NCBI RefSeq assembly: GCF_964204645.1
Contig: NC_134029.1
Span: 18,780,950 to 18,844,949, forward strand
DNA length: 64,000 bases
Direction: 5' to 3'
Origin: Tubulanus polymorphus
Taxonomy: Eukaryota > Animalia > Nemertea
In this document: positions 3,681 to 40,334 of the stretch, one piece after another
How positions within the stretch are numbered: position 1 is the stretch's first letter
Layout of the letters: each line of letters opens with the position of its first letter
Position numbers and translations under genes: made by a program
Notes under the pieces: generated by a model
The model's input: the letters and a program-made list of their open reading frames with translations, nothing else
Databases searched by the model: none
Told to the model about the DNA's origin: nothing

Positions 3681-6600
3681 CTGTGTTTCCCTGTATCGTG
3701 CGCTACAAACCTAATCTTTGTGAATTTAGTAGTAATGGAGAATTGGGTATGTTTGGCCCTGGAAAAGGTACGGAAAATCAAATACTGCTAATAGCATTAA
3801 CTTTGGAAAGATTTTCTTGCTTGGTTGACAGAACTAGTGGCCATTCTGTCAGTATACTGGAACTTACTGTAGGTCCCTCAGGCTCACGAAAAAGTTTGGT
3901 TAGGCCTACTTTTGGTAACTACATGTTTTCAGCGAGGACAAAAATTCAAACTTTATCACGAAACTGAACCCTTGTGTATAAAATCTGGCTCTAATTCAGC
4001 ATATGCTCAATAAATATGACAGTGATTGTTTTGGCGTTCCAAGTGATGGTCATTTGTATGCAGGAGCAGCAAGCATTCACAGCTTAAATCTACTACTAAT
4101 CAAATTGAAACCAGATGATCATTTCTGATGCGATGAAGCCTTAAAAGCATTTGCGATATCACATTAATCGAATTTAAAGAATTTTCTGAGAATCACTGGC
4201 TGTTGTCTTCGGCGCTCTGATTAGATTACTGACTCGTCTGTGATGAACGATATTAAGTGCCTGTTGAGAAGTGTTTCTTTTTTTTCTACTTGTACAAATT
4301 ATATTCAAACGTCAGTCATAGCAGACGCCATGTTTGTCAGTCTGCAGTGCTTTACCTATTAATGATATAGGGTGGTGGATGAGGTTTAATTATTATCTGA
4401 ACAAAGCTATCTCGCGGGTTTGAGGTTCACAATATAATCTTTCAGTTTAACTGTGGTATATTGGATATTGTAACCGAAAAAAAAGTTTTATTTATCTATT
4501 TGTGTTGAATTAAATGATGAATGTAATATATTGAAAACAGAGATAAATATTTGTAATGGTGTTTGTATCGTTTTTATTACTAAAAGTAAGGAAAAATCCC
4601 AACTGGTTACAACCAGTATTTAAATTTGACCAGAATTTTTCTCTTAGTTTGTACATTCCAGGAAGAACTGTACTATTTTGATTATTCTTATTTGTAAGTA
4701 CAGAGATTTTTTTTACGAAAGTTCAAAATCGGAACTTGGAGATGCAATGTAAATGTTTTGCCCAGAATCTGTCAAAATGTTTGTATTTCTGATCATTGAA
4801 TAAAATCTAAATTTCTTGAACAATTTTCGTAGTTAGTCAATGACTTGCTTGCAAGAGGTAGTCTGGTTTCTCCTCATGAGTACATGTAGTTGGACACCTT
4901 GTTGGTGTTGGTTTGGTAGAACGAGTCAACATGCATTCCTATCATCTCAATAGAATGGAACCTTCAAATCAATGCCCGCACCAAAAATCAGTTTTATGAA
5001 ATGCATGTACTTCATGAACAGTTTTCCAATTGAGCCACAAAACTGGTTCACATGGTCATGACATTACAAAAAGAATGGCACATCAAGTTGATTGTGACTG
5101 TCCATGAGGATTGACTGGAAATTCCAATCATGATACAACAGTGCTAACTCATGCCGGTCACCACTGCCTTCAGGAAGTCATAGATATACAGTCAAGCCCA
5201 CTTAAAGTTGAATTTTTAAACCAATTTTCTGCAGAAGCCAGTTTCGATTGTCTCCACACTTGCTATTTAAATTGTGCTCCCCGAGTCTGATTTTCACTAG
5301 TCAGAAAAAAATCCCAAAACATTCTAGAAAGATCTGATTTAAACTTTACCGTAGTTACTATACCATTAGTATGAGTACAGATCGTTTCTTAAACCAGACC
5401 CTTTGATAATGTTCCATTACTCCGAAAGAAGTGTAAGAAGCCAATTTTTCTGAGATTGCAGGCGTTTTGAATGCAGCTCCCACAGAGTGTGACAAACCCC
5501 TAGGGTGACTGAACACTAACAAATTTCTACTTGTGCAATACTGACCCGAGTGATTGAAGACAGAATCAACAGGATACCGTACATAATCGATTCTTTGTAT
5601 ATTCAGCTATAAATCAATTATGTATCTATTCAACCTTTTTCCAATCGCTTGTGGTCAGCTTTGCGCAAGTAGAAATCTGTTAGTGTTTAGTCATAATCTG
5701 TTTCTCCCTACATGTTCATGACGCATCGATTATTTTTGTGGATGGCCTTCAAATGCCCCCTCAGCAATCTCAATAAAATTTGCCTTCATATTCTATATCG
5801 ACCTCAACTGAAGTTATGGGCCATTTTCCGAGGGTCTGGTTTCTTACGAAACACTCTGTAGTGTCCTATGAATCTATACGCGCAAGAAACATTTGACGGT
5901 TTATGAAAAAGATTTATTCCAACGTTGTGAACATCGTCATCATCCAGACATGTGTAAGATCAATATTAACACAATTAATTCCAGTCTGGTTGAGACATAT
6001 ACTCATATACAAATAAATCAATATTAAATGTAAATCGCTTGGATGGAACCCAACACACACACCATACGTCGGCAGATATATATCTATATCAATCAAAATT
6101 TCTTCCACATTCCCTATCAGTCTAAAGAGTGTAATCGACACCAGATTTGTGATTCGAGCTTCTTATTTTCAAATCTTATTAACAGCTTTTTAAGAGAACA
6201 GGATGCAATTTTTTCCAGTCCTCGTCCTTTGCCTAATAAAAATTTTACGTGACAACTCATAACCTAATACATACTATGTATACATATTAAGAAGACCCAC
6301 ACAGTTCAAAAATCATTTATACAAACGGATTATACGAAAAAAAAACCTTCAAAACTAAATTCTTTTTTTTTCAAAAGCGTACAAGTAACCATACACGAGA
6401 TAACATACATTCTTTCTAAAAGGAAGCACCGAAAACATCCGAACATAAGCAAATTTGAGCCTATAACAGATTAAGTGATTAAAATAAGGCGGCTATTCCT
6501 TAAAACGCGTAGTAGTAGAACAGGGTAATCAAAACATCGGCTAGATCGCCTTTCCAACTTGATACGAGCAATCATATGAAAATCATAGAAAAATAAAATT

Positions 6601-7222
6601 CAATTTTTGCTCCCTTAACAGACTGAAATAGGTGATAATTTCGGAGGCAATTCAAAATTCAGTCAGAAACATGTTGTAATACACACGTACAAGAAAAAGC
6701 AAATATCGTCGTTCTGTTGTGACAAAAAATTGTGTATTTCTAATTGGAATGAGCTACTGGCATCATGGCACTTTCCTTTCCAAGAAAGGTGATGCCTTGA
6801 AAATATTCCGACAACCCATATTCTGAACACACCATATTCTGAGAATAACTACATATTACCCGACTTGATTTCTCACAATTGCGAAACAAACAGGTAATTA
6901 CTCGGTGAAAAGAAAGCATTACTCATTCATTATAATCTGAAATCATCCAAAAATTGATTGGTCAATAAATTATAATCAAGCTAGATATGGCCCGCCGCCC
7001 TTCTTCTAAAATTGATTCTTATTGCAGAGAAAATATATACACACAAGTAGTGTTTTTCTGTAATTCGAAAAAAAAATTGGAGCTCGAGGAGAGGTGTACT
7101 ATTGTTCATATCCATCGCACCATCCTTCGCTACGGGCCTAATCGACGTTCATCTCACGCGTATTGAGGGTCCTTTTCTGAATTCAACGATAAACAGTCAC
7201 GAAAAATCGATCGTCGTCGAGT

Positions 7223-10200
7223 TCAAAACTTTTTCGATCCAAAAATTGCGTCGGCATCGGGCGCGCCTTTCGGGTGTTGGAATTTCAAACGGCGTTCCCG
7301 GTTCAGGTTTACGGGCGGCGGTCGATTCATTCCGGCGAGCATCTCCTGGTAGTCCTCCTCTTCTTGGCGTTCGTGTATGTCGAGAACGACGCGTTTCAAA
7401 CGATTCTTCTCGTCGCGTTCAGCCTGCTCGCGTTCGATGAACTTCGTCGCGAACGTCGCTGACACGGGCACGTTCACCGGCACGAACTGTGGCTTGTTGC
7501 CTTTCTTCATCATCAATGTGAAGTTGATCGAGTTCATCGTCGTCACGACCGCCGATGCCGGCGCGTCGTCCGCCGCGTCGTCGGGCGGCTGCAATATTCC
7601 CGACGCGTCTGAATCGTTGTTCGCGCCGTACAATTCGGCGGCCATCGTCGACGTGATGACGCCGCGCTTTTTCGCCTTGTTGCACCCCTTCAGGTGCATC
7701 GGCATCGCGATGTCGACCGGCGGCGCTTTCATCGCCTCTTGCGCGCGCGCTTGCAAACTGTCGATCATCATCTTGTCGAACGCCGACATGAAGTCGTCGT
7801 CTTCCGTGCACTTCATGTGCTTCGGCCCGCCGGTCAACACGTGACAACGATCGTCGTTATTGTCTTCCCCGGCCGACAGGTAATCATCGTCTACCCCCTC
7901 GTCGTCGCCGTGTTCGTCTTCAGCTGTCAAACGCTGCTCAGTCAGCGATAAACTCCCACTCCGCTCCTCCGTGCTTTCCTGCGTGCTGCCCTCGTCATCA
8001 GACGCAGTCGCCGCCGATGAACGAGGTTCGCCGATCTCGTCGGCTTCGTCGGTCTCTTCGATCGGCGCGAGATTACCGTCGTCCGAAAATGACAATCGCT
8101 CCGGCAGGGCCTCGTCGAGTTTCGACTTGAATTCGTTTTCGATTTTGCCGACGGCTTCGTTCGCCTCGTCGAGCGTTTCGAACAACGCGATCTTCGCGCG
8201 GATCGCCTCCAGCGAGTCTTTCACCATGTTGTCGACGTCCATCGGGAACGGTCGCTGATCGGTCCAGATGGCGCGCGAACGTTTGTACAAATAGTAACGC
8301 TGAAAATACGTCAGGAAATAGTCGAGTTTCTTCCTGCTGCTGCCGCGGTCGAAGAACTGTCCGCACGTGTCCAACAACACGCACACGAGCCGTATACGGA
8401 ATAGATGTTCGGGCTGATCGAGCGGGGACGGCACGCTTTCGTCGAGCGATACGCCGAACGTGATGAATGAGTACAACGTTTTAAAAACGACCGCGGATTC
8501 GACCATGCGATAGTTGTACAGTTCGCCGAGGTACTTCGCCGTGCTCACGCGACGCTGGTTGAACTTCGGCGCATTGATCTCCATGCCGACGCGCACGTCT
8601 TCGAGAACGCCGTCGACGACGAGCACGGCGATGTTCTCGTGAAACGGCGCAAGACCGGCGAGCAGATTCGCGAGGCAGTGAACATTGTTGAAGCGCACAT
8701 TCCACACCGCCGTCAAACACTTCGCCGCATAGTTGCGCAAGTCGTCGTCGTCCCAGTCGAGTTTACGCATCTGCCGCAACATCTTCTCGACCGTGTGCTT
8801 CGTCAAGTCGTCGTAGAGGATTTTGCGGATGTACTCGTGCATCGGTGGTCGCTCCTTTTTCGTCGTCTGCACGGTGTCCGGCGGGTTGCAGTAGTAGTAC
8901 GCGTTTTCGATCATCGCCGTGTAGCGACTGTCGAGGTGCAACGCCGCTTTCTTGCGCACCATCACATCGAGGTAGACTTTCGTGCGTTGATGCGAATCGG
9001 CGCTGCGATAGAGAAACCGGCCGCACGTGTCGAGCAACGAACACGCCATCTCGATGTTGTGGTGGCTGAAATCGTACATGAGCATGCGCAGGAAGTGCAA
9101 TGCGTCCGATTTCGGAAACATGTTGAACTTGACGAGTTCGCCGATGAATCGCACCGTCTTCAACTTCGACTCGATGTTTATCTGGTCCTTTTTGCGTACG
9201 TGCCATCGGAAGTCGCTGCTGAGCAACTGCGCGAGTTCTTGCGACACGTCGGGCATGCACGGGTACAGAATCGCGACTAACCGCGAGTAGAACGGCAACA
9301 GGTCGTAACGCGTGCGCTGCACGGTAAACAAAACGCGCACGAGTTTCTTGCGATTCGCCTTCGTGTTCAGGTTCATGCAGAAATCGATCGCCGCCTTGTC
9401 GATCAGTTCGCGATTGACGCAATTCGGCAGCGATTGAATGAACGCTTCGAAAATCAACTTCATACAACCGCTCGTGTCGTCGTCGTCGATATCGGCTTCG
9501 ACCTCGACGTTCACCGGTTCCGGTTCGTCTTTTTTGCTACCCTCCAATTCCATCTCTTTTTCGATTTCTTTTTCGACGTCTTCGACGTTCAGGCTTTCGT
9601 CTTCGACCGTTGTCGTCACTCCGCCGCCGTCGCCCGTCGCAACCTTATCCGACGTAGTCTGTTCGCTATCCCTGTACAGTATCCCCGGAACCATCGCTTT
9701 CAAATCGGGAAACGTTATGTAAAACGCCTTCGTTTCTTCGTCCTCGAAAAGTTCGACGTCCGCATCGAACGGATATTCGGCGATCTTGTCGCCGAACGCG
9801 TCCAAACCGAGCCCGTCGTTTTCGGCGTTCTCTTCTTCGGCGAACTCCGGCAAATCCTCGTCGAGTATGTCGGCGAATTGCGCGGCGTTCGATTGCAATT
9901 TCTGCCACGCCGACTGCGCCGCTTCGAACTTCTCTTTACGTTCCGTAGTCAATTCCCCTTTCATATGCAGCGTTTTGCGATTCTGACGCTCCATGTTCTT
10001 CAGGTTTTTGTGCTCGGCGACGAGGTGTTTCGACAACGACACGTAGTAATCTTTGATCAGATTGCGACACGCTTTTTGCCGATCGGCGACGAGGACCTGA
10101 CTGCGCGGCACCGGCGTCGCAAACTTCTCCGACAACATGCGAATCTTCCGCGCCAAAAGTCCGGCCCAATCGTCGCCGCAGTGTCGACAGAAACTGAGAA

Positions 10201-10834
10201 TAATCGTCAGATTGTTGTGCTCTTCTTTGTCGGTGTTGATCAGCAAGCTGAGCTGCGTCGACAACACCGGCAATCCGACTTTCTCCGAGAACACGCGAAC
10301 GGCGACGAGGTCAGCGAAAAATCGCAAATCGACGCGTAGCTTACTGGCGTTGATCGCCTTCTCCTCTTTCTTCGACGGCAGAACCTTCAACCAATTCTCC
10401 AACAACGCCGGCGAAAACTCGACGTACCGCTGGTGGAGCAGGCTGCAAATATAGACAGCGCAGCCGACGTCGGTCATCTTCAACTTCGCCTCGGTGATTG
10501 CCGATGCCACCTCGCCGATGTACTTCGTCAAATTCAACGCGTTGAAATCGTTCACCAACGTTTCGCGTTGCGCTTCGCTCAGCGAGTGCACTTTCTTCAC
10601 GAACGCGCGGTTCTTCTTCAAACTCGAATCGAGCTTGCCGAAAAACGACTCCGAATCGGGTCGATTCTCGGCGGCGTTTGAATTTTTCGCGCGTAGCTCC
10701 GCTTTCAGTTTAATCTTCTCTTCGACGTCTTTGATATACGCGATTAACGTTTCTTTCTCCTCCTTTTCGATCAGTTCGATGTTCTTCCCCTCGGAGCCAT
10801 CATCCGGTTGTTTAACTTCTTCGTTTTTCTCCAT
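7223..10834 (-). CDS. UPF2: Regulator of nonsense transcripts 2 (UPF2), intronless, 1203 aa
   Basis: Uninterrupted ORF with UPF2 hallmarks: LDSSLKKN..FVKK, LNLTKYIGE, LPNCVNRELID, ESKLKTVRFIGELVKF, MIENAYYYCNPP, KYLGELYNYR, CGQFFDRGSSRKKLDYFL (three MIF4G domains), an acidic region, a UPF1-binding segment (EDDDFMSAFDKMM) and the C-terminal HPKGAPDADAIFG. Start context is AAAACATGG with an in-frame TAA 6 nt upstream. Confidence 0.97.
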   Translation of the reverse strand: MEKNEEVKQPDDGSEGKNIELIEKEEKETLIAYIKDVEEKIKLKAELRAKNSNAAENRPDSESFFGKLDSSLKKNRAFVKKVHSLSEAQRETLVNDFNALNLTKYIGEVASAITEAKLKMTDVGCAVYICSLLHQRYVEFSPALLENWLKVLPSKKEEKAINASKLRVDLRFFADLVAVRVFSEKVGLPVLSTQLSLLINTDKEEHNNLTIILSFCRHCGDDWAGLLARKIRMLSEKFATPVPRSQVLVADRQKACRNLIKDYYVSLSKHLVAEHKNLKNMERQNRKTLHMKGELTTERKEKFEAAQSAWQKLQSNAAQFADILDEDLPEFAEEENAENDGLGLDAFGDKIAEYPFDADVELFEDEETKAFYITFPDLKAMVPGILYRDSEQTTSDKVATGDGGGVTTTVEDESLNVEDVEKEIEKEMELEGSKKDEPEPVNVEVEADIDDDDTSGCMKLIFEAFIQSLPNCVNRELIDKAAIDFCMNLNTKANRKKLVRVLFTVQRTRYDLLPFYSRLVAILYPCMPDVSQELAQLLSSDFRWHVRKKDQINIESKLKTVRFIGELVKFNMFPKSDALHFLRMLMYDFSHHNIEMACSLLDTCGRFLYRSADSHQRTKVYLDVMVRKKAALHLDSRYTAMIENAYYYCNPPDTVQTTKKERPPMHEYIRKILYDDLTKHTVEKMLRQMRKLDWDDDDLRNYAAKCLTAVWNVRFNNVHCLANLLAGLAPFHENIAVLVVDGVLEDVRVGMEINAPKFNQRRVSTAKYLGELYNYRMVESAVVFKTLYSFITFGVSLDESVPSPLDQPEHLFRIRLVCVLLDTCGQFFDRGSSRKKLDYFLTYFQRYYLYKRSRAIWTDQRPFPMDVDNMVKDSLEAIRAKIALFETLDEANEAVGKIENEFKSKLDEALPERLSFSDDGNLAPIEETDEADEIGEPRSSAATASDDEGSTQESTEERSGSLSLTEQRLTAEDEHGDDEGVDDDYLSAGEDNNDDRCHVLTGGPKHMKCTEDDDFMSAFDKMMIDSLQARAQEAMKAPPVDIAMPMHLKGCNKAKKRGVITSTMAAELYGANNDSDASGILQPPDDAADDAPASAVVTTMNSINFTLMMKKGNKPQFVPVNVPVSATFATKFIEREQAERDEKNRLKRVVLDIHERQEEEDYQEMLAGMNRPPPVNLNRERRLKFQHPKGAPDADAIFGSKKF

Positions 10835-10890
10835 GTTTTAACTCTTTTCACCTTCTTTGATGGCAATTATAACTAATATTCACTCGCGTA

Positions 10891-13415
10891 CTAATTGAAC
10901 GATTCCACTGCCTGCTTTTGTTGGTCGAAACGACTCTTGTGATTTTTTGCCATGTAGATGAAATACGTCAGGGCTTCTTTCTCCACAACTGGGATCGTTT
11001 TGAAGTGTCTCGCAACAGTCTGAAATGACACAAACGTCACGATATTCAGATCGCATCAGAAAAGATCAAATCACAAGATTTAGGTTCGGAGGGGCGACCA
11101 TCCTTTCATTTTTACATCTACCTTCTGAAAATCTGCCACCCCTTATAAAATATCTTCTGCCCCTACCAAAGTGGATTCCAATATTCTATCAAAGCTCATA
11201 ATTGAGAGCGTAATGAGCTTACAAATTAAACTTAATTTTCTGCATTTTCGCGGATCGTTAAGTTTTGCTACTTCAGCGGCCACGATGCCATAAACTTAAC
11301 AATGAATACAGCCTCCTTAGAATTCTGTGCATATCAAATATTGAGTTGATATTGGTTAATTTTCAATGAATTAACACTAAGGACTGTGGAACCGAGTCCT
11401 ACGTTAATTCGGATTGGTTGAATTTCATAGACCAGATGAAGAATTTTATCAGTCCAAAATGCGGTGTTAACATAAACAACAGTACAATACAACCACACAC
11501 ACCATCATCGAAAACAGTGCATAGGCCCCTAGTAATCATATTATTTGTTTACACAAAATCTACGAGACTTATAAAGGTTCAGGGTTAGTTGTTCCAAAGT
11601 TTGTCGATATTGGATAAATACTCTTAATTACAATGCAGTTTCAACGGTTGCGCTATGTTAGTAAATCCACTGATAACTTAGACAAACTTTCGAGCATTTG
11701 GAATGATATTACTCAACAATGTCACGGTTTTTTGCAAGAAACATCAACAAAAATCAGAACTTACATCGGCTAATTGAGCTTTATTCAATCCAGGTCGCGT
11801 TTGTAATTTGTAGTAGCGCTTGTATCTTCTCAACGTGTTTACAGGCATTTGTAAGAAGTCAATCTGGAATCAATTCAATCATAGAAACAAATAAAAACAA
11901 ATAGAAATTATGGGAAAATGAGTGCAGGCCAATGTTTCAAATGAAGAGATTATTACACAAATCAGTTAAATTCAAATTTTCAAATTAAAGACTCAATTTT
12001 CAAACTTATTCCAATTTATCTATCATCTATTCGCAATTCAATTGAACTTGCCAAGTTCACGGTTTTAAACAGTACTATTTCTCGAAGCACGGTTTATACT
12101 TTTTGGTCATTCAACGATTTGATTAATTAATTAATAGAATCAGGATACTTCATACAATACATCGATTCAGTATCCTGATTAGATATGGCAAGAAAATGCA
12201 CCGCCATCATCAGGGGCCAGTTGTGTAGTCACGGCTTAGATAAACAGTCTCAGAACATCTTAGCTGATTCTAAAGATAATCAAATAAGTTAATATTCCAG
12301 ATAAGACCAGTCTATGGATTAAAGAAGTAGAACATTTTTGGACTTACGTCATGACTGTGCAACTGGCCCCAGGACTAATTAATTCAAGTTAAGTATAAGT
12401 ACCTCTAGTCTAAGCCTAATCAGTATTTCATATATAGTGCCCGCTTCAAAATTAAGAGTCTAAGGGCACCATACTGATGAGGCTAGGTAATAAGATAGCC
12501 TTAAGAGAGTAAGGTATAATGTCATTGACTGAAATATATTTGATTTTTAGGACTCTTCCAAATTCAAGAAGTTTGTCGAGTAATTTCACAAATTTAGAGG
12601 GAGATTCGAGATGTTCAATTCAGACCGAGTTTCCAAGCAGTAGTAAGACGACGAGGGCAGCTCGTTGGATTCATACCTCGGGTAGATCGTTGTCCCTGTC
12701 TGGTGTATCACGATCATCACCGCTATCTTTTCGTTTTCTTTTGGTTCGTACACTTTGAATCATCGTCTTGTGGTAATCACAAATGTAGATGTGGCGTACC
12801 TGCACACGAAATAACAAGTAGATTTATATTCACTTATATCCCAGGTATTAAAAACAGATAGGAAACATCCCACACCACTGAGGCAAGTGCCCTACTGTTC
12901 TGTGTTCTTCCCTACTGTTTAAATCCCTCAACCCACTTAGTGCTACACCGAGCATTATGAGGGACCATGTATTTACTTAGTTTGTACGCAAAAATCTGCC
13001 AATTTCTATGAAACCCCTCCCCTTATACGCAGCTGTACTTTTCGCTTTACCCTCACTCCCAGTATGTACGCAAGAATGATATGTTTGTATAAATTATTTG
13101 AGATTTTTTTTTAAATCATAAAGAATGCGATAGAGAATATAAAGAATCCTTAAATCGCGACACTTCATTTTTTTAAGTCGCCCATCCTAATTGTACGAGT
13201 TCCTCATTTCAAGGTTTGTATGAAAAAGACAATTTTAAAAAACGTACGTTTGTATCGATATTAAGCTTTAGTTTTCTCTGAAGTACGATCTTTTGGATAC
13301 GTTTGCTGTAACTGGCATTTCCGGCGAGACGAACGCAACGTGTACCGGACTCTAATAAACAGCAGATTTGATCTTGTGGTCCTCGGCTATCCTCTTCAGT
13401 ACTAACACCGTTCAT
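10891..13415 (-). CDS. SAP30L: Sin3/HDAC complex subunit SAP30/SAP30L, 172 aa, 4 coding exons
   Basis: Exons 13415-13248 ([32 protein letters not shown]), 12799-12677 ([24 protein letters not shown]), 11863-11765 ([33 protein letters not shown]) and 11019-10891 ([28 protein letters not shown]). All junctions are phase-0 GT/AG. Contains the SAP30 zinc finger, NLS and Sin3-binding domain. Confidence 0.95.
12214..12369. mobile_element. MITE with GGGCCAGTT termini (PIF/Harbinger-like)
   Basis: gggccagttg...caactggccc flanked by cag. A related copy at ~41089-41229 shares the taagaccagtc and tttttggactta segments. Confidence 0.55.
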
Positions 13416-13765
13416 ACCACCACCACAGCCACCTCAGCCTCTCCTGAAATACACAAACCCCAGCTGAACAGATCAAGCGAATAAGAGGCTAGCAAAAACG
13501 ATCTGTGTTTTTCGGACATGTCATATTAATCAAAGTAGAGAGGTACAGTAGCAGGGGCGGATTCAACCAAAGAAAAGTATGTTGGGAGCCTTCAGACATC
13601 CTCGGATGGGACCAATTTTTTTACAGGTAGGGGGGCCAACTGAAAATCTAGAGGGTAGCAACCCCCTAGATCCGCACCTGTGTAGTCTGTAGAATTGTGG
13701 TGAAGGCCAGTGGATTGGCTGCAGTAGGCCTAGGTCTAGCTAAAATAGGGGCTGTCAAATGTTAA

Positions 13766-14389
13766 AGCGCAGATCCACACCTTTTCATATGGTTCGATCA
13801 ATTTTATCAAAGATCACCGTTTCAGACTCAGAATATCATCAGGAATTCAGTGCAGTTGTTTATTTTATGATATCACCACTAGAGAATAGGTAGTTGCCCA
13901 GTTTTTGTCTCGAAATCGTCACGATTTTTCAACCGGATGCCATATTGGATTGAATGGTGAATCTGAAGTGGAGATCTGTCAAAAGTATTTGCTGAAACTA
14001 TGTTTTGTGATCCAATCAATTTGAGAAAGAAAAATAAAATTTTCTTATCAAGTTAAACAATTATAGGCCTATCAGACAATTTAGCTAGCATTAGAAACCC
14101 AAGTGACAGTTGACAGAAATTTGATCAACTTAATTGTACTGATAATCGACACATTGTTTCAGTAAGGATTCGTAAGAAGTCTGCATAAGAATAACGAAAT
14201 CCAAGATGGCATCCAGTTAAAAAATCGTGATGATCTTGAGATAAAAACCGCGCCAAAATTCGGATTTCTAGTGAAAATGACATGAAATAAATGATTACAT
14301 TGGATTCCTAGAAACATTCTGAGGCTGGAACAGTGATTTGTAACTCTTAATTTAGATTGTGTCAGTCACGAGAGGTGTGGATCTGTACT
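13766..14389. mobile_element. Non-autonomous DNA transposon with AG(C/T)(G/A)CAGATCCACACC TIRs (Kolobok-like)
   Basis: ttaa-agcgcagatccacacct ... aggtgtggatctgtact-ttta, plus internal inverted segments. Superfamily is inferred from the termini only. Confidence 0.55.
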
Positions 14390-15198
14390 TTTACAGCTAT
14401 GGCGCTATAAATATAATTAGTTAAGTGGAACACTGTCTTATCGCCAGTCCTTTTTTCACTCAATGCTCTGCAAAAACTAGAGGCATTAACAATTAACAAC
14501 CTTTGTCACCGTTCCGTTTTCGTAACTACTGTCTGTCACACCTCCTCTCCGTGCGACGTTTTGGTCCGTAATTTCGTTAATAAACAGCTTATCTACCTTT
14601 ATTACGCATCAATTTGTTCAGTGAGGACTTTGCATTCAGAAATAAACAACATTTTTTACTAAAGTTGTATTTGTTTTCATTTATGAGCGATAGTTTACTC
14701 GGCATACGCTCGCGTAATGCTGAAAAATCCGCTCCGCGGACGCTCGGAAACATTACAGTGATGTCATCACCTGCTCATTAGGCCCGGAACTATAGCAGAA
14801 TCAGAGAGACTCAAAAGAAGACACGTTGACGCAATGGTTTCTATACTATAACTGAAGATACTTTATTTCCACTAACATACAGAATGGCGGGTTGCTGGGA
14901 CGCACATGTGGTCCTAATAAGCTACTCTAAACTGTGGCAGCGTGAGAACGCGGAGAGAATGAGGAGAGCGCGAGAATTATCGACAATTAGCATATCAAAA
15001 CACAGTAGGTGGCGCCACGTGATGGGCCATAAAAGCCGATTTTCAGAATTATGCGAGCATATGCTAGGTAAACTATCGCTGATAGATGAAAACACAAACA
15101 AATCTATGCCAGATCATGATTTATTTCTGAATGCAAATTCCCTACTGAACAAATTGATGCATAATATTTAGAGATAAACCGATTATTAACGAAATTAC

Positions 15199-15829
15199 CA
15201 CAGGCACTTGAATATGGGCTTTGATAATGGATAAATATCAAATAATTCACCAGCGATACGTTGTTCCTACTTCGATAATCCGCCATGTTTTATAATAATT
15301 TACCCATGATGCAACGCGCGCCCGTCGTTTAACTATACTACACAGAAAGGCTGGAAACGATCCCATCTCCGTAGTGCTTAAATCTACCCGCAATTATCGG
15401 GACAGCCGAACACTGCCGATGATTGCCGAAGTACGTCCCAAGTGTCAATTTTAATCCTGAAATATAATGAGCGCCCATAATTTCAATTGTAGATGATTTT
15501 TTGGAAACATTGACACTGTTTTAGCTCCATTAAAGATTTGAACTGGCAACAAAATTGATTTTTGAAAATTTGTGATGCCTCTTCGGGATTGCTGTGACGT
15601 CATCAGTCCCGATATTTGCAGGTAGATTTAAGTATTACGGAGATAGGTGCGTTTCCAGCCTTTCTGTATAGTATAGTTAGACGAGGGATGCGCGTTGGAT
15701 CATGGGTAAAACATTTGCATCATGGATAATTAAGATGGCAACCCCGTTGGTGTTTTTATCGAAGATTACGATAAATCTTATCATTTTTAACACACCAACA
15801 AGGTCAAAGCCCATATTCAAGTGCCTGTG
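15199..15829. mobile_element. Foldback MITE, CACAGG termini, 8-bp TSD GAAATTAC (P-element-like)
   Basis: cacaggcacttgaatatgggctttga at 15199 and its reverse complement ending at 15829. GAAATTAC at 15191-15198 and 15830-15837. Inner arms ~15300-15405 and ~15605-15710 are also complementary. Confidence 0.8.
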
Positions 15830-16220: not shown

Positions 16221-16899
16221 AAGTCTAATCGAATCGACGTAACGAACGGAAACCACCCAGACTAGTTTTATCATGGTCTTTCAGCTTAACAATTTAAACA
16301 CTATTTAAAATTTAAATCATGAAGTATTCTACTTTGAAGCACGCTTCAGCTTACCAACAAGTTTCCCGACGCAAAAAGCGACAGAATACACCCGTTCTTT
16401 GAGGATTTGGCTCAGAATGGTACAACAAAACTAACGACGTTACACCAGAAATTTGTGAGGAAGCACCGGCACCGACCGAAGTGAGAATAAGATGACGTCA
16501 CATAAATGAACACGATCTATCCGGGCTTAGGTTCGAACCCCAGCGTGACACTACCATGACAGAAGGGTAAACTACGCAAACTAACATAGCAAATGCCAAA
16601 TATATAACACATTCTTCAAGATTAAAACCTCAAATAACAAAAAGGTGGCTTACTCACTTTTAAAAAAATTATCTTTATTTGAGTTGATCAAACAGAGGGC
16701 TGAAAATTGGCATATGATATTTGATACAGGTGTAATAGCCATCCATACAACTATTCCATTGTTTAGCTTCTGCAATGTGGTTTAGGCATAGCTGTGTTTT
16801 TGCCACCTCAGCTCGGATGAGCGGTTCATTATCGCATCATTACAGTCGAATTAAATATCGGAGAGCGTGCTCTATTGTTTTTCGCGTGACGTAATGGCA

Positions 16900-18322: not shown

Positions 18323-19906
18323 ATGGCTTCAATGGGAATGGATCCTGTTGCCGTGATGCAGATGCAGATGCAGATGAGACAGCAAGCGGGTAATGTTACT
18401 ACTGCTGCTGCTACTGCTGCGGTTAGTTCTGGATCTAGTAAAAAACCAAGAGGGAAGATGACACCGTATGCGTGCTTTGTTAAGGTGATCCGTGCTGAGC
18501 ATAAGAAAAAGCACCCGACTGAACATATCGTATTTGCTGAATTCTCTAAGAAATGCGCGGAAAAGTGGTCGGTAAGTGCAACGTAATTCCGTGGTCCTTT
18601 TTGGTTCAAGACTTCGCTATTAGATAAGACGTCACATTCTCAAAAATATTATCATTTTCTTCTCCTTTGCAGCAAATGAATGAAAAGGAAAAGAAACGAT
18701 TTCAAGAAATGTCGTTGAAAGACAAAGAGCGCTACGAACGCGAAATGGCCGAATATGAACCGCCCGCAGGGGAAGCACCGAAGCCGAAGAAGAAAAAAAG
18801 GACCAAAGATCCGAACGCCCCAAAACGAGCGCTGTAAGAAATCAACTAGTTATTTAGATTTGAATTATCTACTCGTTCTTTTGCCTGTTCGAAACAAGTT
18901 GGGGGGGGGGCACATGGTTTTAAGCATCAGTAAACATCTTCCCAGTTCTTGCCAACTCGGAGCAGCGATATTAGTCAGAAAAAAGGATAAGAAAAATGAG
19001 ATTATTATTTTGTTTTTATCAGAGTAAATAAAAAAAGTTTGATTTGGGCATGTTGTACTAAGCCACAACTGCCCCTGAAATATCCATCATAAACACGGTT
19101 TTAATTTCAGGTCGGCGTTCATGTGGTTTTGCAAAGACGCGCGCAAGGATGTTAAAGAGGCGAGTCCTGAACTGCGAATGGGCGAAATCGCCAAGGTTCT
19201 TTCGGTCAAGTGGAAAGAATGTCCAAATCGAGAAATCTACGAAAAACAGGCTGACGAAGATAAACAAAGATACGCAGAAGTAAGTCGATCACTCAAAAAT
19301 TTCCGTTGTTGGTTGAACTATTACCATTGTGTAAACAGTAAACTTCTGATTATCTTCTTGCTTCCCTTGTGACCAGTTCCTTTTCGTTGGTTAGTTTTGA
19401 TGGTCTAAACTGAACATATTAATTATTATGACCAATTTATGGAAAAAATCTGATTTGGTATTCAGAAGCGTATAATTGAGAGTTGAAACAATTTCAATCA
19501 TCAAATCACCATCCCTCCTAACAACTTGTTTGCATTGCATGCTCGATGAATGAAGGCTTGGATATAACAGAACTATATAATAATTGCGGTTCAGATATGG
19601 ATTATGGCTTGTTTGAAAGACAATTGCATCAGATATTTCTAACAATGTTGCAATGTTTTTTTTTATTCGCCGGTATATATCGCTATTAACGATCTCATTG
19701 TTTTACAGGCGATGAAAGTTTACAAAAGCCAAAAAGCAACCGGAAAAACGAAACCGATGATCGTCGGTAATCAGCAAAATCATCAAATTGCCGCGATGAT
19801 TCCACAACAACAACAGCAGCTACACCACAAACAACAAGGTGGCGCTGAATCTGAGGAATCAGACGAATCTGGCTCTGAAGATGATGATGAGGACGATGAG
19901 GCTTAG
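18323..19906 (+). CDS. HMGB/DSP1-type double HMG-box protein, paralog 1 (~258 aa)
   Basis: Exons 18323-18571, 18673-18833, 19111-19279, 19709-19906 (GT/AG, frame-consistent). Box [27 protein letters not shown], linker KDPNAPKR, box [19 protein letters not shown], a Q-rich segment and an acidic tail. Confidence 0.93.
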
Positions 19907-22900
19907 GATGGTGTAGTCTGCTACCATTGTTGGTTGTCTTTGATCGTTGGCTGCCGTCTGAATGAGCCGCCGATAATCCAAGTTTTGTACAGCAATTGTT
20001 AATCCGAGTGTCCAAACACCTTCGATTGATACATCGAACGGATCTGCATTTCAAACAAACGACTTTTCAATGTTTTTATTTTTGAAAACATTTTAAGTTG
20101 TCACGTTTCTTCCATTTAAGGCCTATATAGGCGCGGACCTATGTATTGTGTGTGTACGTACGTTGACGCTTATTGTTGTTAATTGATTCTTCGATCGAAT
20201 TGAGAATTTTCTTGTTGTTTCATTATTTGTAAAATGTTGATTAGAAAGAGAGCTATTATGATGATTTTTGATTTGTCTAACGTGTAAAAGTTGTTAAGTA
20301 TATCGATGTAACATGAAAATAAAGTATATACCTAGTGTAGATCTAGCTTGCAACTGATATACGTGTATTTTTGTGTGTTGCGAATGATGACAGCTTCATC
20401 GCTATTCTCTATTGTAAATATTTCGTGAAATTAATTTGTTTAGTCATACTGAAATGAGTTTATCTCTTTGACGAATGATACGTTGAAAAATGTGCAATGT
20501 TTCATAGGTCGCTGAAAAATGTCATAATGTAACATTAATGTACCTGTGATGTGCGGATCTGGTTCATTTTCTGCTCAATTTCAGACTGGCTCAGCAGTTG
20601 CTTGAGCAGTATTTGATTGAAATAAAGAAAGAGTAATTCATCAAATACTGAATACCGCCCATTGAAGTTAATTGTGTAGCATTAGAGATTCATGTAAGAA
20701 AAGTTTTTGGCAATACCGTTAAACACTAACTCAATGTATGGTATATCATATTCTGTGCTTTTTGCTGTAGTTTAGTGAGGTTGCAGAATGGCTTGTTTCA
20801 TTCATGTGATTGTAAAAAAAATCCCCATTGCAACAACAACATATTTTTGGTGGTTGTTGGAGCTTGTCAATTGTAAGATATGGTAACATTCATTAGTAAG
20901 GGAATTGGGACTAGTTCTGTTTGGTAAGTAAAGTGTAAGAACTCAACTTGATGAGATTGGAACTAAAATTAATCAGTGGTATCAAGTAGACTGCCAAGTG
21001 ATATGGCGATTCAAGAAGGAAAGATAGTTGTGTATTCATCTGTAAATAGTCAATGAATGTCACTGTATGATAACTTCGAATGTTGTTACAGAAAAACATT
21101 TTATCTACTATATTAACATTGTATTTGATATGAATGACCCCTGTCATTAAATAAAATACATAGATTCATTTAATTTTTGATTAATTGTAGTATATTAGAA
21201 ATATGCTTCCGTACCACTAGTCTTGGCGCACTTTGTTTTTCTTTGAAATATCGTTAATTACTAATTACTACTAGGAATTCAAAAATACGTCCAGGAATTG
21301 TTATGATTTTGATATGATTTTATTTTCCAGTCTAATGAGTATTAAACATCCACATTGATTGATTAAATTGATGGTCTTAATTGAACCTAGTTGAAAACGT
21401 TAATATGTTTTAGCAAAGTATATTCTTTTATGTGTAGTTCAATATTATTTTCTATCATCAAAGAAAATGAAAGCTATTGAATAAAAAAAAACTATTACGC
21501 TGAAAACGTCTTTATTAGTTAAGGGAAATTGGTCAGTTTTAAATCAAAAATGGGCCCCGTTTTGCGCCGTCTGCCGGTAGGTCAGCCAAACTCAAAACAT
21601 TCGGTAGATGGCAGCACTGTGTAGATAATGGCGATCCTTCATTGACCGTACAATAAGATATCTAGCTAATGTTTGCCGCCTAATTTCACCATCAAGAAAT
21701 CTCCGCGGGTAAGGTTTATCTAAACGATCGAATTCGTTGCGAATCGTAGACGACTATGACGGCCAGTTTTAGTCGATGCATTCGTGAATTCGCTTCAAAT
21801 CGCCTTTCAAATTCGGGTGTTTTAAAAGTTCGATCCTCGTCGGTTTTTTCATTCTTTCTTCTCTTCAATTTTATTGTGTAAATAAAGGCTCATCTCGTCG
21901 AAGCAATCGTGTCGTCGATTGAGTGCGACTTAATTGGCTTTTGGTTGCCGTAATTGCAATTTGCCTTGAATATTGTCTCTCATTGTTGAAGTTAAGATCC
22001 CTATTTGTATATTAAACTGTATAGAGATAGAATAGAATACATTTAAGTAATGTATTTTTAGTTCCGAAATGAATTTCCAGATGGCGCTTTCCATCAGGGA
22101 AATATTTGATTACATTGTATTCTATTTTTCTACATATTGAAACAATGTAACGACTAAATCTCTCAACTGTTGGCACAGGTAAAATCAATGAAATCTTCCA
22201 CAACCCAGAAATACCTTATGGTTTTGTGTTTCAGCTTATTTATATGATCAGAATGTCTTTGGTTCTTTGTTATCAAAAAATATTTTATTAGAAACACACA
22301 TTTCGTTTAGATGATATTCATTTAATAACATATTCAGAAATGATTAACTTTACACTTGTTATACAAGCACTATCATCTCAGACCCGATATGAATTTGGTT
22401 AAGTGCCATTCTTAAACTTACGTGCACAAGAAATGGTGAGATCATAGATTATGCTACATAATTTCAATTCGTGTACTGCTATCTTTTTGAGCCCGGCTAC
22501 TTAATGTATGCAGGATTTTGGTTTTGATTTCGATAATGAGCCTAAAGCTCATTTCAAAAAGCTAGATATTTTTCAAGACTTTGTCTAGCAACCTCACAGT
22601 GGATCTCAATGAATTCAGAGAAATTTGGATATATTATGGAGCAATCATCCACCAGCACCCAGTTCCTAAGTGGTCATTTAGGCCTGTAAAGGTTCAAATT
22701 TTTTGGGAGTCCATTATCTCAAGGTTTGAATTGTTATGTCGCGCAATTCACGATTTTTACTAGTAAGCATTCTTCCTTGCCCGAGCTGCCATGTTTGTTT
22801 TGAAAATAAAGAGCCATGAGATCTATTCGATATCAGGCAAATGAAATAATAGTGAGAATGTTAAATCAGTCTAAAACGCTCGCAGGAGTGAAAGGCGCAT

Positions 22901-32600: not shown

Positions 32601-35364
32601 CGCCATCTAAATCTGCGGAATGTGCAATTAAAACGATAAAATGAAAATCGATTCTAATGAACGAGCCGAAACAATAACTTTCTAGAAGAATACAATTAAG
32701 GGTTCACGGATAGTCCTTAATGATTGGACCATCTCAAATCGATTCAAAATGAAGTGAAATTTGATTCAAAAAGTAAGTAAAGATACTATTACCAGGTAGT
32801 TTAATTCATCATCTGTGCGCCACTATGTGACATGTGTTGTCTACCTGGTAATAGTGGGCAGTGGATAAAAATATTTGCCATTAATTGTGCCTACGTATTA
32901 TGAAAGTGGTACATGCTTAAAACTAAGTACATAGTAGTAAGGAGAAGCAAGAAAAATGGGTAATATAATTGATTTTAACGTGTCTACTATACGCACAAAT
33001 ATGAAGTGATATTAAAAAGTGGAGGGTTAACCAGTAAAGCGCAACATAACTCCCCTGGTAAGCACAGTGCACAATTTTGTATTCAGTAAACCAATACCGT
33101 GAGATTCATGCTAGGAGTAAAACTAAAGCCGCGATCACACTGAGATGATTTTGCCCTGACCAAATTGGCACGGATCAGGCTCGAACCAAATTTGGCCCGT
33201 GTCTAATCAGAGAGCGCGTTCACACGCAAACCATTCACTCGATACTAAACAATTTTCAAACAAAGCGAAGTGGGTCATTTCCGGTACCAGTTGCGCTGCT
33301 TCACTGTCTCGTGCTAAATTTCGGCTCGTACCTGGTCCGACATTTTTGGTTGTGCCAAATTTGGCTAGGGCCAAATAGGCTCGTGCCCATTTGGCACCTG
33401 TGTGAACAGCTTGTTCCAGGCCAAATTTGGCCCGGGCCCAAAGTGCTCATATGATCGCGGCTTAAGATGCTGCCAAATTAGAACACATGCAAAATATCAT
33501 GTGTTCTGGTAAGCAACATCCCAGCATGTGTAAAAGATTGGGTGCTCTATTCAGTGAAATTCAAACAAGGCTTTAGGTCAGAAAATGTTTTTCAAAACAG
33601 AGCCAGGGATTTGTTATAGAAAGGATTTGTTTCTTCCCATAGAAAATCTAGGACAAAAAGAGACTTCTCTGGCCCTCATCAGGGCCCACTTTTTAATGGA
33701 TTTAACTGATTTCTTAGCAATGTTTGTATCAAAACTAAAATTGAGGGGAACTTACTCTGATAAGTTTTTACGGCGCCAAACCCCCTAACTACAGACTTGA
33801 GAGCTAATAACTGATTGTGAATGAAGTGATTATCAAAAACAACATACCACACATAGTATGACACACGTTTTCACCTGAAACGTTGGAGTTTTGTTGATAG
33901 AAAAGTTGAATATCGGTGACGCCACACGCCGTTTTACCGGGAACGGTCACCACATCAACGAGCTCGCAAGTCAAGTGATTCCAAATCGACACATTTCCAC
34001 AATTCATCGATCCAGTGAAGAGGAAATCTCCTGAAATCCAATAATAATCATTCATTTACAGCAGACTCCGCCCAAGTCATATCCAACCAACTCTGATAAC
34101 CATTCGACTCAGATGGTTTTTGAAAGATTTTGTCAAGAAATTAGTAGGTACATTAATCAGAAGGACAACCCCGCAACCTCAAATTTCTCATAAACTGAAG
34201 GCCCATTATATCCTCAACGATCATCAAAATTCAAAATTTCAAAGATGAAGAGCTGTTGATCTTGTTGAAAGTGGAGGGATCACCCATAGACACCTGCAGA
34301 GCGGGTGGGGCACGAATGAGTAAAGTGAGTCATTTTCAGAATCAGTAAGTATTCATACGCAATGATTTGACCCTTGCTTGAATTTGGTATGGGCCCGGTC
34401 GACGTTTTTGGTTGGGCCAAACAGACGAACAGCCCATTTGGCACCCATGTGAATGGTTGGTCTGGGCCTAATCTGACACTGGCCAAAATCGCTCAGTGTG
34501 ATCATGCTCATATCATTTTTTTTTGTGTTGTCTGTATTGCGATAGTTTTATGCGAGAACAGCTGAACAATCACGTACCATCCCTGATATCGATCATACAC
34601 AGGGGCAGATCCAAAGGGCTATAGACCTATTATTAAACTACCCTCCAAATTTAGAAGGGCCTGAAAATTGAGGTCCTGAGATGTAATCTAAGGGGCTCCA
34701 AGTAGCTTGAAACACTAAAAAATCAAAGTGGAATTTTAAGATTAGATTCTCCGAAAGTTTTTTTGCCCTTTTAAAAAATTTTGATTTAATGTGGCCTTTT
34801 TAATTGGATATGGTAACCCTTTTTATCTGTCCTCACCAATCTTCTCAAAAGAAAGGTTGATTTTCTTCATAAAATTCTACTACTTTGATTTTAAAGGGGC
34901 ATTTTGGAAATTTAAATTGCCTTCCAGAAGGCATGGCAGGTAAGCTGGATCCACCACTGGTAATACACACATTGGCTCAGAGAAATACCGTTGAATTTGA
35001 CGGTGAAAACGCGAGCCTGCTCTTCGCAACACGGAATCTCAGTGCGTATCTTCTTCCACGTTTTAACACGCCGCATACGGTACCACTTGACGTATAACGT
35101 TTTCCACGCGAAAAACGGGTGAATATCTGACGCGATGTGTGCCGCGATTTCATTGAGATCGCGACATGAGCTGATATCCAGTAGTATGTCCTCGTCGATT
35201 TCGTTTGCGCAAAATTTTGTCCACGCGTCGTCCTTGGCAGTGAGCTCGCGTAAAATCGAGTTCCACTTGTGACAAACGGTCCTCGATCGCGCGGAATCGT
35301 AACCAGTCAAGTTGCGAAATATCCGAATTAGAATTTCGTCGGGAATGTTCGTTACGGTGGCCAT
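29671..35364 (-). CDS. F-box protein with divergent WD40-like repeats (~7 exons)
   Basis: N-terminal F-box (NIPDEILIRIFRNL..SRTVCHKWNSIL) in exon 35364-34989. Further exons at about 34030-33850, 32612-32428, 31876-31720, 31204-31020, 30388-30252 and 29864-29671 carry WD-like strings (FLFTGSMNCGNVSIWN, LYGHAQPPLVVKIW, SLSSQGDLLVWD, IAVGTSDGKVVVIRW). Some boundaries are approximate. Confidence 0.8.
31980..32341 (-). mobile_element. Helentron-associated (HINE/DINE-1-like) non-autonomous element
   Basis: A (CTGT)n tract next to gttacgagaccct, with tgacc motifs. The same end occurs in the opposite orientation at ~55960-56030. Family assignment is inference. Confidence 0.4.
33127..33462. mobile_element. 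PIF/Harbinger-type MITE, TIR AGCCGCGATCA, TSD TAA
   Basis: taa-AGCCGCGATCAcac ... atgatcgcggct-taa. Homologous copies at ~58790-59085 and ~1092-1373, and a partial one at ~34300-34508. Confidence 0.8.
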
Positions 35365-37473: not shown

Positions 37474-40334
37474 ATGACGAATCCAAAGGGATACAGGCGG
37501 GGTACCCGTCACATGTTCTCCAGGAAGTTCAGGACGAAGGGTTACATCCCGCTGTCGACTTACATGAAAGTGTACAAGAGAGGTGACATCGTAGATATCA
37601 AGGTTCGTCAGGGTTTTTTAGGTGTTGCTTTGTTATTGTCAATACTGTATATCAGTTTAGTAATTTGCTGGGTAAAATAACGGTTTGGAAATATTTAAGA
37701 ATTTCCTCTTATCAGTGGAATATCTTGGATGTTCAGGGTACTGAAGAGCACAAAGGGTACCCCAATGCGGCTAAGCTATAAAAGGGGGTTTGGGGTCCTC
37801 CCCTTGGAACATTTTGGTGTTCTTCAAGGCCATTCAATGGTGTAATGGGAGGGAATAATTCATATTTCCTCAAAAAAAATTTTCCTCAACATTTTTGAGG
37901 GTGCCTTTGAGAATTAAGGAGGGGGACAGTCCCCCTGGATCCGTGTTTGTTTTTCAAGCGATTACCGTTAAAATATATCCCTGTTGTATGACGGTAATTG
38001 TTCATTAACACAAATCATCCATGAAATACTTCAGGTTTTTTAATTCATCATAAGAAATTGGGAACTATGGGTATTGGTAAATATGGTAATTTATACACAT
38101 ATATCTTCTTCCTATCACAGGCTAATGGTGCCGTTCAGAAGGGTATGCCGCATAAAGTGTATCATGGAAGAACTGGCAAAGTGTACAATGTTACTCCACA
38201 TGCTCTGGGAGTGATAGTCAACAAGCGAGTGAAGTAAGTGATAGGTCGAACAGACCTCAGTTGAGAGAAACCATTGGCATCCTATAGCTTAATGCAATGC
38301 GCGGATTCAATGAGGGGTACACTCCCCTCAGAATATTAAGTTTCCCCGAAATTTACGAAAAAAGTATATATAAAATATTTTACCATTATCTGAATGTTTC
38401 TGAATTGAAGGCTTGTTCTCTATATTTCTGAAAATGAGTCAATGTCTTTTTAAGTCTAAAGCTATAGAGTCAGTTGCATAAAAGTTGGTTAGACTGGAGT
38501 TAACCAGTGGATACTTGACATGGTGACGAAGTCCATTGTTGCTCGGTATTTATCCAGCGGTTATCTTCAACCAACATTTTTGAGCCGCTGGCCCCGGCCT
38601 ATTTAAAGGGGTGCACTCCTCGAATCTGAGGACTCGATCCAATGCAGATGAAATATAAATCGATGTTTAATTCCAGGGGACGAATTCTGCCGAAACGTAT
38701 CAACGTACGAGTAGAACACGTCAAACATTCGAATTGTCGTCTGGATTTCTTGAAACGCGTGAAGGAAAACGAACGCATCAAGAAGGAAGCCAAAGAGCAG
38801 GGCATCCAGGCCGATTTCAAACGAAAAGTGAGTTTGGCTATGAAATGAATATGTGTGAGAGCCACTTGGTGGCAACTGAGGATCTGCCATGATTGCATTA
38901 AATTTCTCAGTTATTGCACTAGACAATTTCTATTCTGGCTTTTCTTTAATCTTATGAGCACATAAGTTTTCGATAAAATTTTCATCACAGAGAGGGAAAA
39001 AAATATCAATTTCATATATATTCAATTACTTGTTTAGTCGAAGTTGTCATTGCTGGAATGATCATTATATTGACGACTTATCGAAATGATGTATTACATT
39101 AAGAACAGGGTCCCTACAACTCCTTGAATCCTTGAAAACTCCTTGATTTTTGAAAATATTTTTCAAGGTCCTTGAAAATCCTTTAATTTTGAGAAATATC
39201 CATGAACTCCTTGAAACTCCTTAAATTCTGGGAAAGTCCTATTAAAAATTTTCAAAAGGTCCTTTTCAGAAGACGGTGTATTCTATTATTCTTCATTATG
39301 TGACTTGTGAGTGAAAGTTGTTTCACTTTGAGATTTAAAACATTTAAACATGTAAAACCAAAACGGCACACACAACAACTGATCAAAATCTGAGAAAAAC
39401 ATGGATTTTGTTTTTGAATTTTCGACTTTTTTCCTTATATATGACCGCGTAAACCTCCTTAAATTTTGAAAATTACTCCTTAAAAATTCCTTGAATTCTG
39501 GATACCAGGAATTGTAGGAACCTTGAAGAAAGTTAATTCAACTGGAAATACAGATAACCCCGCGTATATCGCCCACATCGGTTCAGAACTATTTTGTTGG
39601 TACACAGTATGGCGGTATATCGGGGATGTTTTACTATGTATTTGTATTGAGAAATTGTAAAACCTGGTGGTATGCGGGTATGGCGGTATGTGAGAGGGCA
39701 GTATATCAGGGGTTGACTGTACATACATTATTAGGGCCTAATATGATGGAATAATATGACAACTTGACCAAGAGTTCGGTTGTATTCAGAATTAAGAAGC
39801 TAAAAATCCAGTTCAAATTTCATTGAAAATTGATACAATTTTGTAACTGATTTGCACTACGTATAACTGTACGTATTGTGGTATGCGGTGTGTGCTGGTA
39901 CTCCTTCTTGGATGACTGTGCAAAATTTATATATTTAATCCTCAAAATACCTTCCGTGCTCAAGCCCAAGATTTGAAGTATCATCTGGTGTAGATGACGG
40001 TCGTGAGATGCAGTCAATGAACATGATACATTACCCCTTAGTTGAAAATGAATATAATCGACTTCCTTTGTTTTCTGTCCGTATTCTCTCAATTGTCGAT
40101 TGTGATATTTGGTTATTCGCTACCCTTCAGTTTTTGATTATCCACCTCAAGTGTGGCAGATAATCAAGAGTTCTTTCTTCAACTATGCTCACTGCATGCC
40201 GAAATTGGCGTATGTTAATTTGTATTTCGTTTCTTTCTTTGTAGCCTGTAGGTCCGAGAGAAGCTCATTTCGTGCGAACGAAGTTTAACAAACCACAAGT
40301 CATTGAGCCGATACCGTACGAGTTCATCGCATAA
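37474..40334 (+). CDS. RPL21: 60S ribosomal protein L21 (eL21), 160 aa
   Basis: Exons 37474-37602, 38121-38233, 38677-38827, 40245-40334 give [38 protein letters not shown]../[18 protein letters not shown]../..[15 protein letters not shown] at ~40359. Confidence 0.97.
38401..38579 (+). ncRNA. Candidate intronic H/ACA snoRNA in RPL21
   Basis: Hairpin 1 (tgaattga..ctctata / tatagag.tcagttgca), H box ATAAAA at 38478-38483, hairpin 2 (tggtt..aaccagtggata / tatccagcggtt..aacca), then ACA at 38574-38576 plus 3 nt. Folded by eye only. Confidence 0.45.
39106..39527. mobile_element. MITE with CAGGGTCCCTACA terminus and tccttgaa sub-repeats (hAT-like)
   Basis: cagggtccctacaa ... ttgtaggaacct. Related sequence at ~28440-28690 and ~3356. 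Confidence 0.55.
39551..39719. mobile_element. Tc1/mariner-type MITE
   Basis: ta-cagataacccc ... ggggttgactg-ta; homologous to 2745-2875. Confidence 0.6.

Follow-up and report, generated by a model that had tools for sequence, protein, structure and literature searches.

A 64,000-nt stretch of the genome of the nemertean Tubulanus polymorphus (contig NC_134029.1, positions 18,780,950 to 18,844,949; hereafter the window, numbered from its first letter) carries on its minus strand a four-exon SAP30L gene, then a spacer of 56 nt and then an intronless UPF2 open reading frame (ORF), with UPF2 lying in the last exon of SAP30L. Our analysis supports one transcription unit for SAP30L, which encodes a Sin3-HDAC subunit, and UPF2, which encodes a core factor of nonsense-mediated decay (NMD). 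With modest confidence, we propose that a single spliced mRNA, 5.66 kb or longer, gives rise to both proteins, with UPF2 as its second cistron. We regard the locus as a real, transcribed and lineage-restricted candidate bicistron of a class that has been described before.

Support for a Single SAP30L-UPF2 Transcription Unit

The coding sequence (CDS) of SAP30L (13415-13248, 12799-12677, 11863-11765 and 11019-10891, minus strand) encodes 172 aa and is interrupted by GT-AG introns only. Its product contains both Pfam SAP30 domains and matches the RefSeq protein XP_074649803.1 of T. polymorphus at 100%. The UPF2 ORF encodes the Upf2 domain along with three MIF4G stretches, and the two genes are distinct, unfused and conserved ORFs with complete domains on the same strand. 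On re-reading, the splice acceptor at 11019 (preceded by AG), the SAP30L stop (TAG, 10893-10891) and the UPF2 ATG at 10834 were all placed correctly in a preliminary description of this DNA.

Contigs from four of six sequencing runs (X1, X2, X4 and X5) were placed on positions 5500-15500; what we report on them refers to the pieces listed, which are part of the whole. Runs X2 and X4 represent one sample, with alleles other than those of the window, X1 possibly represents the source sample, and X5 belongs to a separate study. None of the six runs is recorded as RNA or listed as long reads. The kind of sample behind X5 is not on record, and we take it as RNA because its contig skips the three GT-AG introns of SAP30L. 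This contig (record 26, 2308 nt) joins 115 loose bases and the four spliced SAP30L coding exons to the spacer and about 1.6 kb of UPF2, down to position 9246. Running unbroken from the SAP30L exon 3-4 junction into the UPF2 ORF, it supports the single transcription unit that had been suggested earlier.

A second X5 contig (record 25) covers 9139-5898 and ends 15 nt beyond an AATAAA (5918-5913), the sole copy of this signal between the SAP30L stop and 5898. The 115-nt loose end of record 26 has a unique match in the window at 16356-16385, placing a non-coding first exon upstream of the coding exons. The implied mRNA consists of a leader of at least 144 nt, 519 nt of SAP30L, the 56-nt spacer, 3612 nt of UPF2 and a 3' untranslated region (UTR) of 1325 nt, and we infer that both ORFs are present on single mRNA molecules. 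The depths of the two X5 contigs are similar (13.4 and 14.3) and were not used as evidence. At the DNA level, a single X1 contig spans 5500-11164, and X2/X4 contigs span 10329-11257 and cross the junction between the two genes.

The Spacer Separates the Two Proteins

The spacer consists of 24 A, 14 T, 12 G and 6 C. As described previously, no ATG, AATAAA or ATTAAA occurs within 10890-10835, although the lack of an ATG is unremarkable by itself, being found in 24% of 10,000 shuffled sequences. A SAP30L-UPF2 fusion protein was considered and rejected, in agreement with the preliminary description. The spacer is out of frame and holds stops in both frames: read-through of the SAP30L TAG halts five codons on, and the UPF2 frame is closed by a TAA 6 nt upstream of the UPF2 ATG. 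When the donors of the coding exons were joined to each of the AGs in exon 4 and the spacer (18 in all), the first ORF never exceeded 172 aa and was never connected to UPF2. Folding of 10960-10740 revealed no stable RNA structure around the spacer (z = +1.2).

Two points need qualifying. The spacer was said to lack a polypyrimidine-AG acceptor, but this is a weak argument, since the pyrimidine content at its AGs is 0.18-0.59, compared with 0.65 at the real acceptor. The spacer itself has no poly(A) signal, as stated earlier, but an ATTAAA at 10714 inside the UPF2 ORF had been missed. The features of the unit are collected in Table 1.

Table 1. Features of the SAP30L-UPF2 unit, in window positions
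Feature	Position	Strand	Remarks
Palindrome TGACGTCA	16493..16500	.	Just upstream of the contig 5' end; candidate element of a shared promoter
Non-coding first exon	~16355..16470	-	Donor GT 16354-16353; no ATG; 5' end is a minimum; based on the loose end of X5 record 26
SAP30L coding exon 1	13248..13443	-	ATG at 13415, context GGTGGT-ATG-A; first half of zf-SAP30; spliced in X5 record 26
Out-of-frame ORF in SAP30L	13268..13318	-	16 codons; on the mRNA, 427 nt lie between its end and the UPF2 ATG
SAP30L coding exon 2	12677..12799	-	In-frame ATG 12763; out-of-frame ATG 12717 (21 codons, stop at 11839)
SAP30L coding exon 3	11765..11863	-	First half of the Sin3-binding region; in-frame ATG 11848
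SAP30L coding part of last exon	10891..11019	-	TAG 10893-10891; in-frame ATG 10953 opens a 20-codon ORF with the same stop
Spacer	10835..10890	-	A-rich; 56 nt with little structure and no ATG; out of frame
ATTAAA in UPF2 ORF	10709..10714	-	177 nt past the SAP30L stop; possible early SAP30L poly(A) signal, poorly supported, 14% U downstream
UPF2 ORF, intronless	7223..10834	-	1203 aa; ATG context TAAAAC-ATG-G; GC 0.55, GC at third codon positions (GC3) 0.75, CpG observed/expected (o/e) 1.81
3' UTR	5898..7222	-	1325 nt; AATAAA 5918-5913; X5 record 25 ends at 5898

The palindrome upstream of the first exon is presumably an element like the cAMP response element (CRE-like). In SAP30L intron 1, the window and run X1 differ by a polymorphic indel of some 13 nt at 12902-12917. 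High-copy repeats, with a summed contig depth in the thousands, were seen at about 12330-12375 (SAP30L intron 2) and at 14520-15500 (first intron), with smaller ones at 11.1-11.3 kb.

Routes to the UPF2 Start

The strength of the two starts was judged by the general rule on positions -3 and +4. By this rule the SAP30L start (GGT-ATG-A) is middling and the UPF2 start (AAC-ATG-G) is strong. The most likely route to UPF2, which we put forward tentatively, is leaky scanning followed by reinitiation after a short ORF. Some ribosomes would bypass the middling SAP30L start, translate a short ORF of 16, 21 or 20 codons and then reinitiate at the strong UPF2 AUG; the simplest such ORF would be the one of 20 codons from 10953, which ends 56 nt before UPF2. 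We favor a short ORF because, according to reviews, reinitiation works best after short ORFs and better with longer spacing, with LINE-1 and its 63-nt spacer as a case of reinitiation after a long ORF (PMC10275272, PMC5972666). Reinitiation of this LINE-1-like kind, after the full SAP30L ORF, is less likely and appears improbable. The mammalian LINE-1 ORF1-ORF2 arrangement shares with the Tubulanus unit a long first ORF, a short spacer and a long second ORF, and termination-reinitiation has been proposed for it, but LINE-1 is a retroelement mRNA whereas the Tubulanus unit is a spliced cellular mRNA (PMC5972666). Internal entry on the A-rich spacer would be less probable still.

Several observations weigh against UPF2 being made as a second cistron. 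Six AUGs precede its start, namely the SAP30L start, three in-frame internal AUGs and two out-of-frame AUGs. The out-of-frame AUGs are not depleted (2 observed and 3.9 expected, P = 0.12), and the Met count of SAP30L (4) is ordinary, the range among 30 SAP30 proteins being 2-7. Second-cistron translation in flies is reportedly tied to the absence of in-frame AUGs. A termination upstream ribosome-binding site (TURBS) is recognized by UGGGA 40-90 nt before the stop and by a stop and start within about 20 nt of each other; the TURBS core motif UGGGA is absent from the mRNA strand in 11019-10835, and the stop-start distance here is 56 nt. Green algal bicistrons read by leaky scanning resemble the locus in their short ORF1, long ORF2, short spacer (algal medians 40-183 nt) and, judged by the general -3/+4 rule, a probably weaker ORF1 context, but one of their two hallmarks, the depletion of AUGs before ORF2, is lacking here (PMC11291117). 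Further, only 45 of the 159 dicistronic pairs in FlyBase are exclusively dicistronic (PMC4528330). On the transcript side, a 106-nt gap (9140-9245) separates X5 records 26 and 25, and the spliced support comes from one RNA-type sample. A contig over two genes is also not the same as a single transcript, and a UPF2 start within exon 4 would yield an identical contig. An ordinary internal promoter may still account for the locus, which is known from one lineage with no laboratory model.

Alternative Explanations

Such an internal start is the alternative that survives best, and we consider it possible, if unlikely. SAP30L and UPF2 would then be overlapping genes, with UPF2 transcription starting in SAP30L exon 4, in the spacer or at the end of intron 3, UPF2 made from a monocistronic mRNA, and SAP30L ending at the ATTAAA or at a shared 3' end. 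At the dicistronic loci of Drosophila, a downstream promoter is the usual source of monocistronic transcripts from the 3' gene, and 114 of the 159 loci have some monocistronic form (PMC4528330). An exon-internal start would leave no trace in the contig and would sidestep the problem of the six AUGs; TGACGT half-sites at 11039 and 10970, together with the ATTAAA at 10714, are in line with it. However, a motif scan of intron 3, exon 4 and the spacer found no TATA box, DNA replication-related element (DRE) or GC box, and nothing decisive, and the ATTAAA is followed by just 14% U. The exon sequence before the UPF2 ATG is just 185 nt long, 129 of which code for SAP30L. Moreover, X5 record 26 is unbroken at exon 4, and no piece joining exon 4 to intron 3 is among the X5 pieces listed. 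Assembly contigs would be expected to break at a leader, at an exon-skipping form or at a strong start in intron 3; minor forms could be cleaned away.

Alternative splicing from a shared promoter, by which the first exon is joined directly to the last exon, would place UPF2 behind a 20-codon upstream ORF (uORF), with the full form making SAP30L. The join from 16355 to 11019 uses two real splice sites and leaves a single uORF, which has a weak context (TAC-ATG-G) and lies 56 nt before UPF2; its length of 20 codons is that given in the preliminary description. Monocistronic forms made by splicing are known from FlyBase (PMC4528330). Against this, record 26 is unbroken through four exons, and neither a skipping joint nor a loose end at 11019 is among the X5 rows listed, which leave out 366 loose ends and the region of the first exon. 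This explanation seems improbable to us, although a minor form of this kind may occur.

Very improbable, in our view, is an operon that is resolved by spliced-leader (SL) trans-splicing at an AG of the spacer. Several AGs are present there, and short gene spacing is typical of nematode and tunicate operons. However, the contig that crosses the spacer is mature and cis-spliced, with no loose end there among those listed, no poly(A) signal precedes the spacer, and no report of SL trans-splicing in nemerteans was found in the literature searched, where the one match concerned chaetognaths. A misjoin, a contamination or a dead pseudogene, which the GC-rich composition of an ORF foreign to the locus might suggest, can be dismissed for practical purposes: the junction is crossed by DNA contigs of two individuals, which rules out the misjoin at about 10835-10890 that was to be checked, and by a spliced contig of a third sample, the closest relative is nemertean, the ORF is intact with mostly synonymous variants, and the F-box exon in the window also has a GC3 of 0.60 and a CpG o/e of 1.94.

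Among the routes to UPF2 that had been considered previously, second-cistron translation is thus favored, by elimination only; SL trans-splicing finds no support in the contigs listed, and exon skipping is neither supported nor contradicted by the rows listed.

Origin of the Gene Pair

UPF2 of Lineus longissimus is 62% identical to the window UPF2 over 98% of its length, and the two pair in a quick tree of 11 rows that carries a long-branch warning. Horizontal transfer of UPF2 found no support, as the closest relative is another nemertean, both among the matches listed and in the tree. The 40 variant rows listed, out of 87, include 11 variants in the UPF2 ORF; 7 of these are synonymous, and stops are absent (P = 0.003-0.011). 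The ORF is intact and conserved, which suggests that each of the two proteins is made by some means. No second Tubulanus UPF2 was found among the best 120 of 690 protein matches.

The stretch that corresponds to residues 20-30 of the window UPF2 falls at residues 209-370 of seven lophotrochozoan proteins, and therefore the charged N-terminal extension, long in most relatives, is missing here; a short form with a similar front also occurs (oyster-like, P0009). The composition of the ORF is distinct as well. Nowhere else in the 64 kb does a 500-nt bin exceed 48% GC, and the GC3 of the ORF is above that of SAP30L (0.44) and of the adjacent HMGB gene (0.46). NCG codons make up 72% (177/247) of its Ala, Pro, Thr and four-fold Ser codons, compared with 26% in SAP30L.

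Introns were found in UPF2 at 17 of 25 related loci, some of them near-duplicates, and 11 of 15 intron positions are common to at least two loci; three loci show no interruption over the greater part of the protein and are possibly transcripts. In all four lophotrochozoan species in which both genes were found, SAP30L and UPF2 lie on separate contigs; these are Lineus (contigs of 20.5 and 21.2 Mb) and the molluscs Solemya, Crassostrea virginica and Argonauta. Because they are unlinked in Lineus, the SAP30L-UPF2 link is not common to Nemertea. SAP30 was beside UPF2 at none of 25 metagenome UPF2 loci, most of which are too short to tell. SAP30 proteins on contigs of 4-8 kb were considered as nemertean candidates and rejected, since they grouped with arthropods or vertebrates in a quick SAP30 tree of 70 rows.

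The lack of introns, the shortened front, the new location and the distinct composition of UPF2 would all fit a retro-copy. We propose that UPF2 is probably such a retroposed copy, which landed in the last exon of SAP30L and replaced the ancestral gene; the parent copy would then have been lost. This likely origin had not been noticed before, and it places the locus in a described class, which makes it less surprising.

A Possible Link to NMD

Apart from the 106-nt uncovered part, no exon joint was seen in X5 from 11019 to 5898; the SAP30L stop lies in the last exon, 4993 nt from the mRNA 3' end, and no junction lies more than 55 nt downstream of it, the distance given by the 55-nt junction rule (PMC3951408). 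With all junctions upstream of the SAP30L stop, the mRNA is predicted to escape junction-triggered NMD, and such an escape would explain why only an intronless UPF2 was tolerated in the last exon of SAP30L. Known human bicistronic mRNAs likewise have their junctions upstream of the first stop and are NMD-insensitive (PMC3951408). Long 3' UTRs can also trigger NMD, although inconsistently (PMC6173133).

In human cells, UPF2 is one of seven NMD-factor mRNAs that are raised on NMD knock-down, with long 3' UTRs and uORFs named as triggers (PMC6680220). The Tubulanus locus shares with this feedback the UPF2 mRNA and features of the long-3'-UTR and uORF type, but in the worm a complete second gene takes the place of the upstream ORF, the 4993-nt "long 3' UTR" includes the UPF2 ORF, and NMD sensitivity is hypothetical. 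An NMD feedback loop is a plausible hypothesis. A ribosome stopping at the SAP30L stop, 5 kb from the poly(A), would mark the mRNA for UPF2-dependent decay, and reinitiation into UPF2 would rescue the SAP30L-UPF2 mRNA. It seems rather doubtful to us that the second cistron of the SAP30L mRNA is the exclusive source of the one UPF2 in this worm, with a feedback loop built in.

Neighboring Features

An HMGB-type gene (18323-19907, plus strand) with four exons, 258 aa and an N-terminal MQ repeat lies head to head with the SAP30L-UPF2 unit. About 1.85 kb separate the HMGB ATG from the first exon of the unit, so the promoter may be bidirectional. The first coding exon of an F-box gene (34912-35364, minus strand) is the one with raised GC3 and CpG o/e mentioned above. 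Exon-like frames were additionally seen at 38599-38929 and 45632-46262, which we take to be exons resembling ribosomal protein L21 and RhoGAP, respectively.

Discussion

True bicistronic mRNAs had been called rare in animals in the preliminary description, which is overstated, given the 159 dicistronic pairs in FlyBase (PMC4528330). The 56-nt spacer falls within the range of -34 to 319 nt of exclusively polycistronic Drosophila loci, and unrelated partners are usual there as well, but most dicistronic loci of Drosophila also give monocistronic forms (PMC4528330). A class has been described in which a retroposed CDS without introns inserts into a transcribed locus and so links two unrelated genes ("bipartite origin, bicistronic transcription"); half (50%) of its downstream ORFs lack introns (PMC13303939). 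The Tubulanus pair shares with its human example, STREMI-SLC35A4, two unrelated older genes, a downstream CDS that is intronless only where linked, and a proposed retroposition into a transcribed host (PMC13303939). In STREMI-SLC35A4 the first ORF encodes a microprotein, jawed vertebrates share the link, and long reads and ribosome data are available (PMC13303939). In Tubulanus, by contrast, ORF1 is a 172-aa protein from four exons, ORF2 is a core NMD factor, the link is not found in Lineus, and the support consists of contigs. Neither Upf2 and Sap30 in the main text of PMC4528330 nor SAP30 and UPF2 in that of PMC13303939 are mentioned, and no report of a SAP30-UPF2 pair or of nemertean nuclear bicistrons was found in the literature searched, which leaves most subscription journals outside.

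If the locus is confirmed, retroposition-born bicistronic mRNAs, which have been described mainly in flies and vertebrates to date, would be known from a spiralian phylum as well, and the downstream partner would be a core housekeeping gene. Nature would thereby provide a test of two questions: by what route ribosomes arrive at a long second ORF when a long first ORF and six AUGs come before it, and what becomes of an NMD-target-like mRNA that itself encodes NMD machinery. If the feedback described above were true, efficient reinitiation would occur after a cellular ORF of 172 codons, and the strength of NMD would set the levels of both UPF2 and a Sin3-HDAC subunit.

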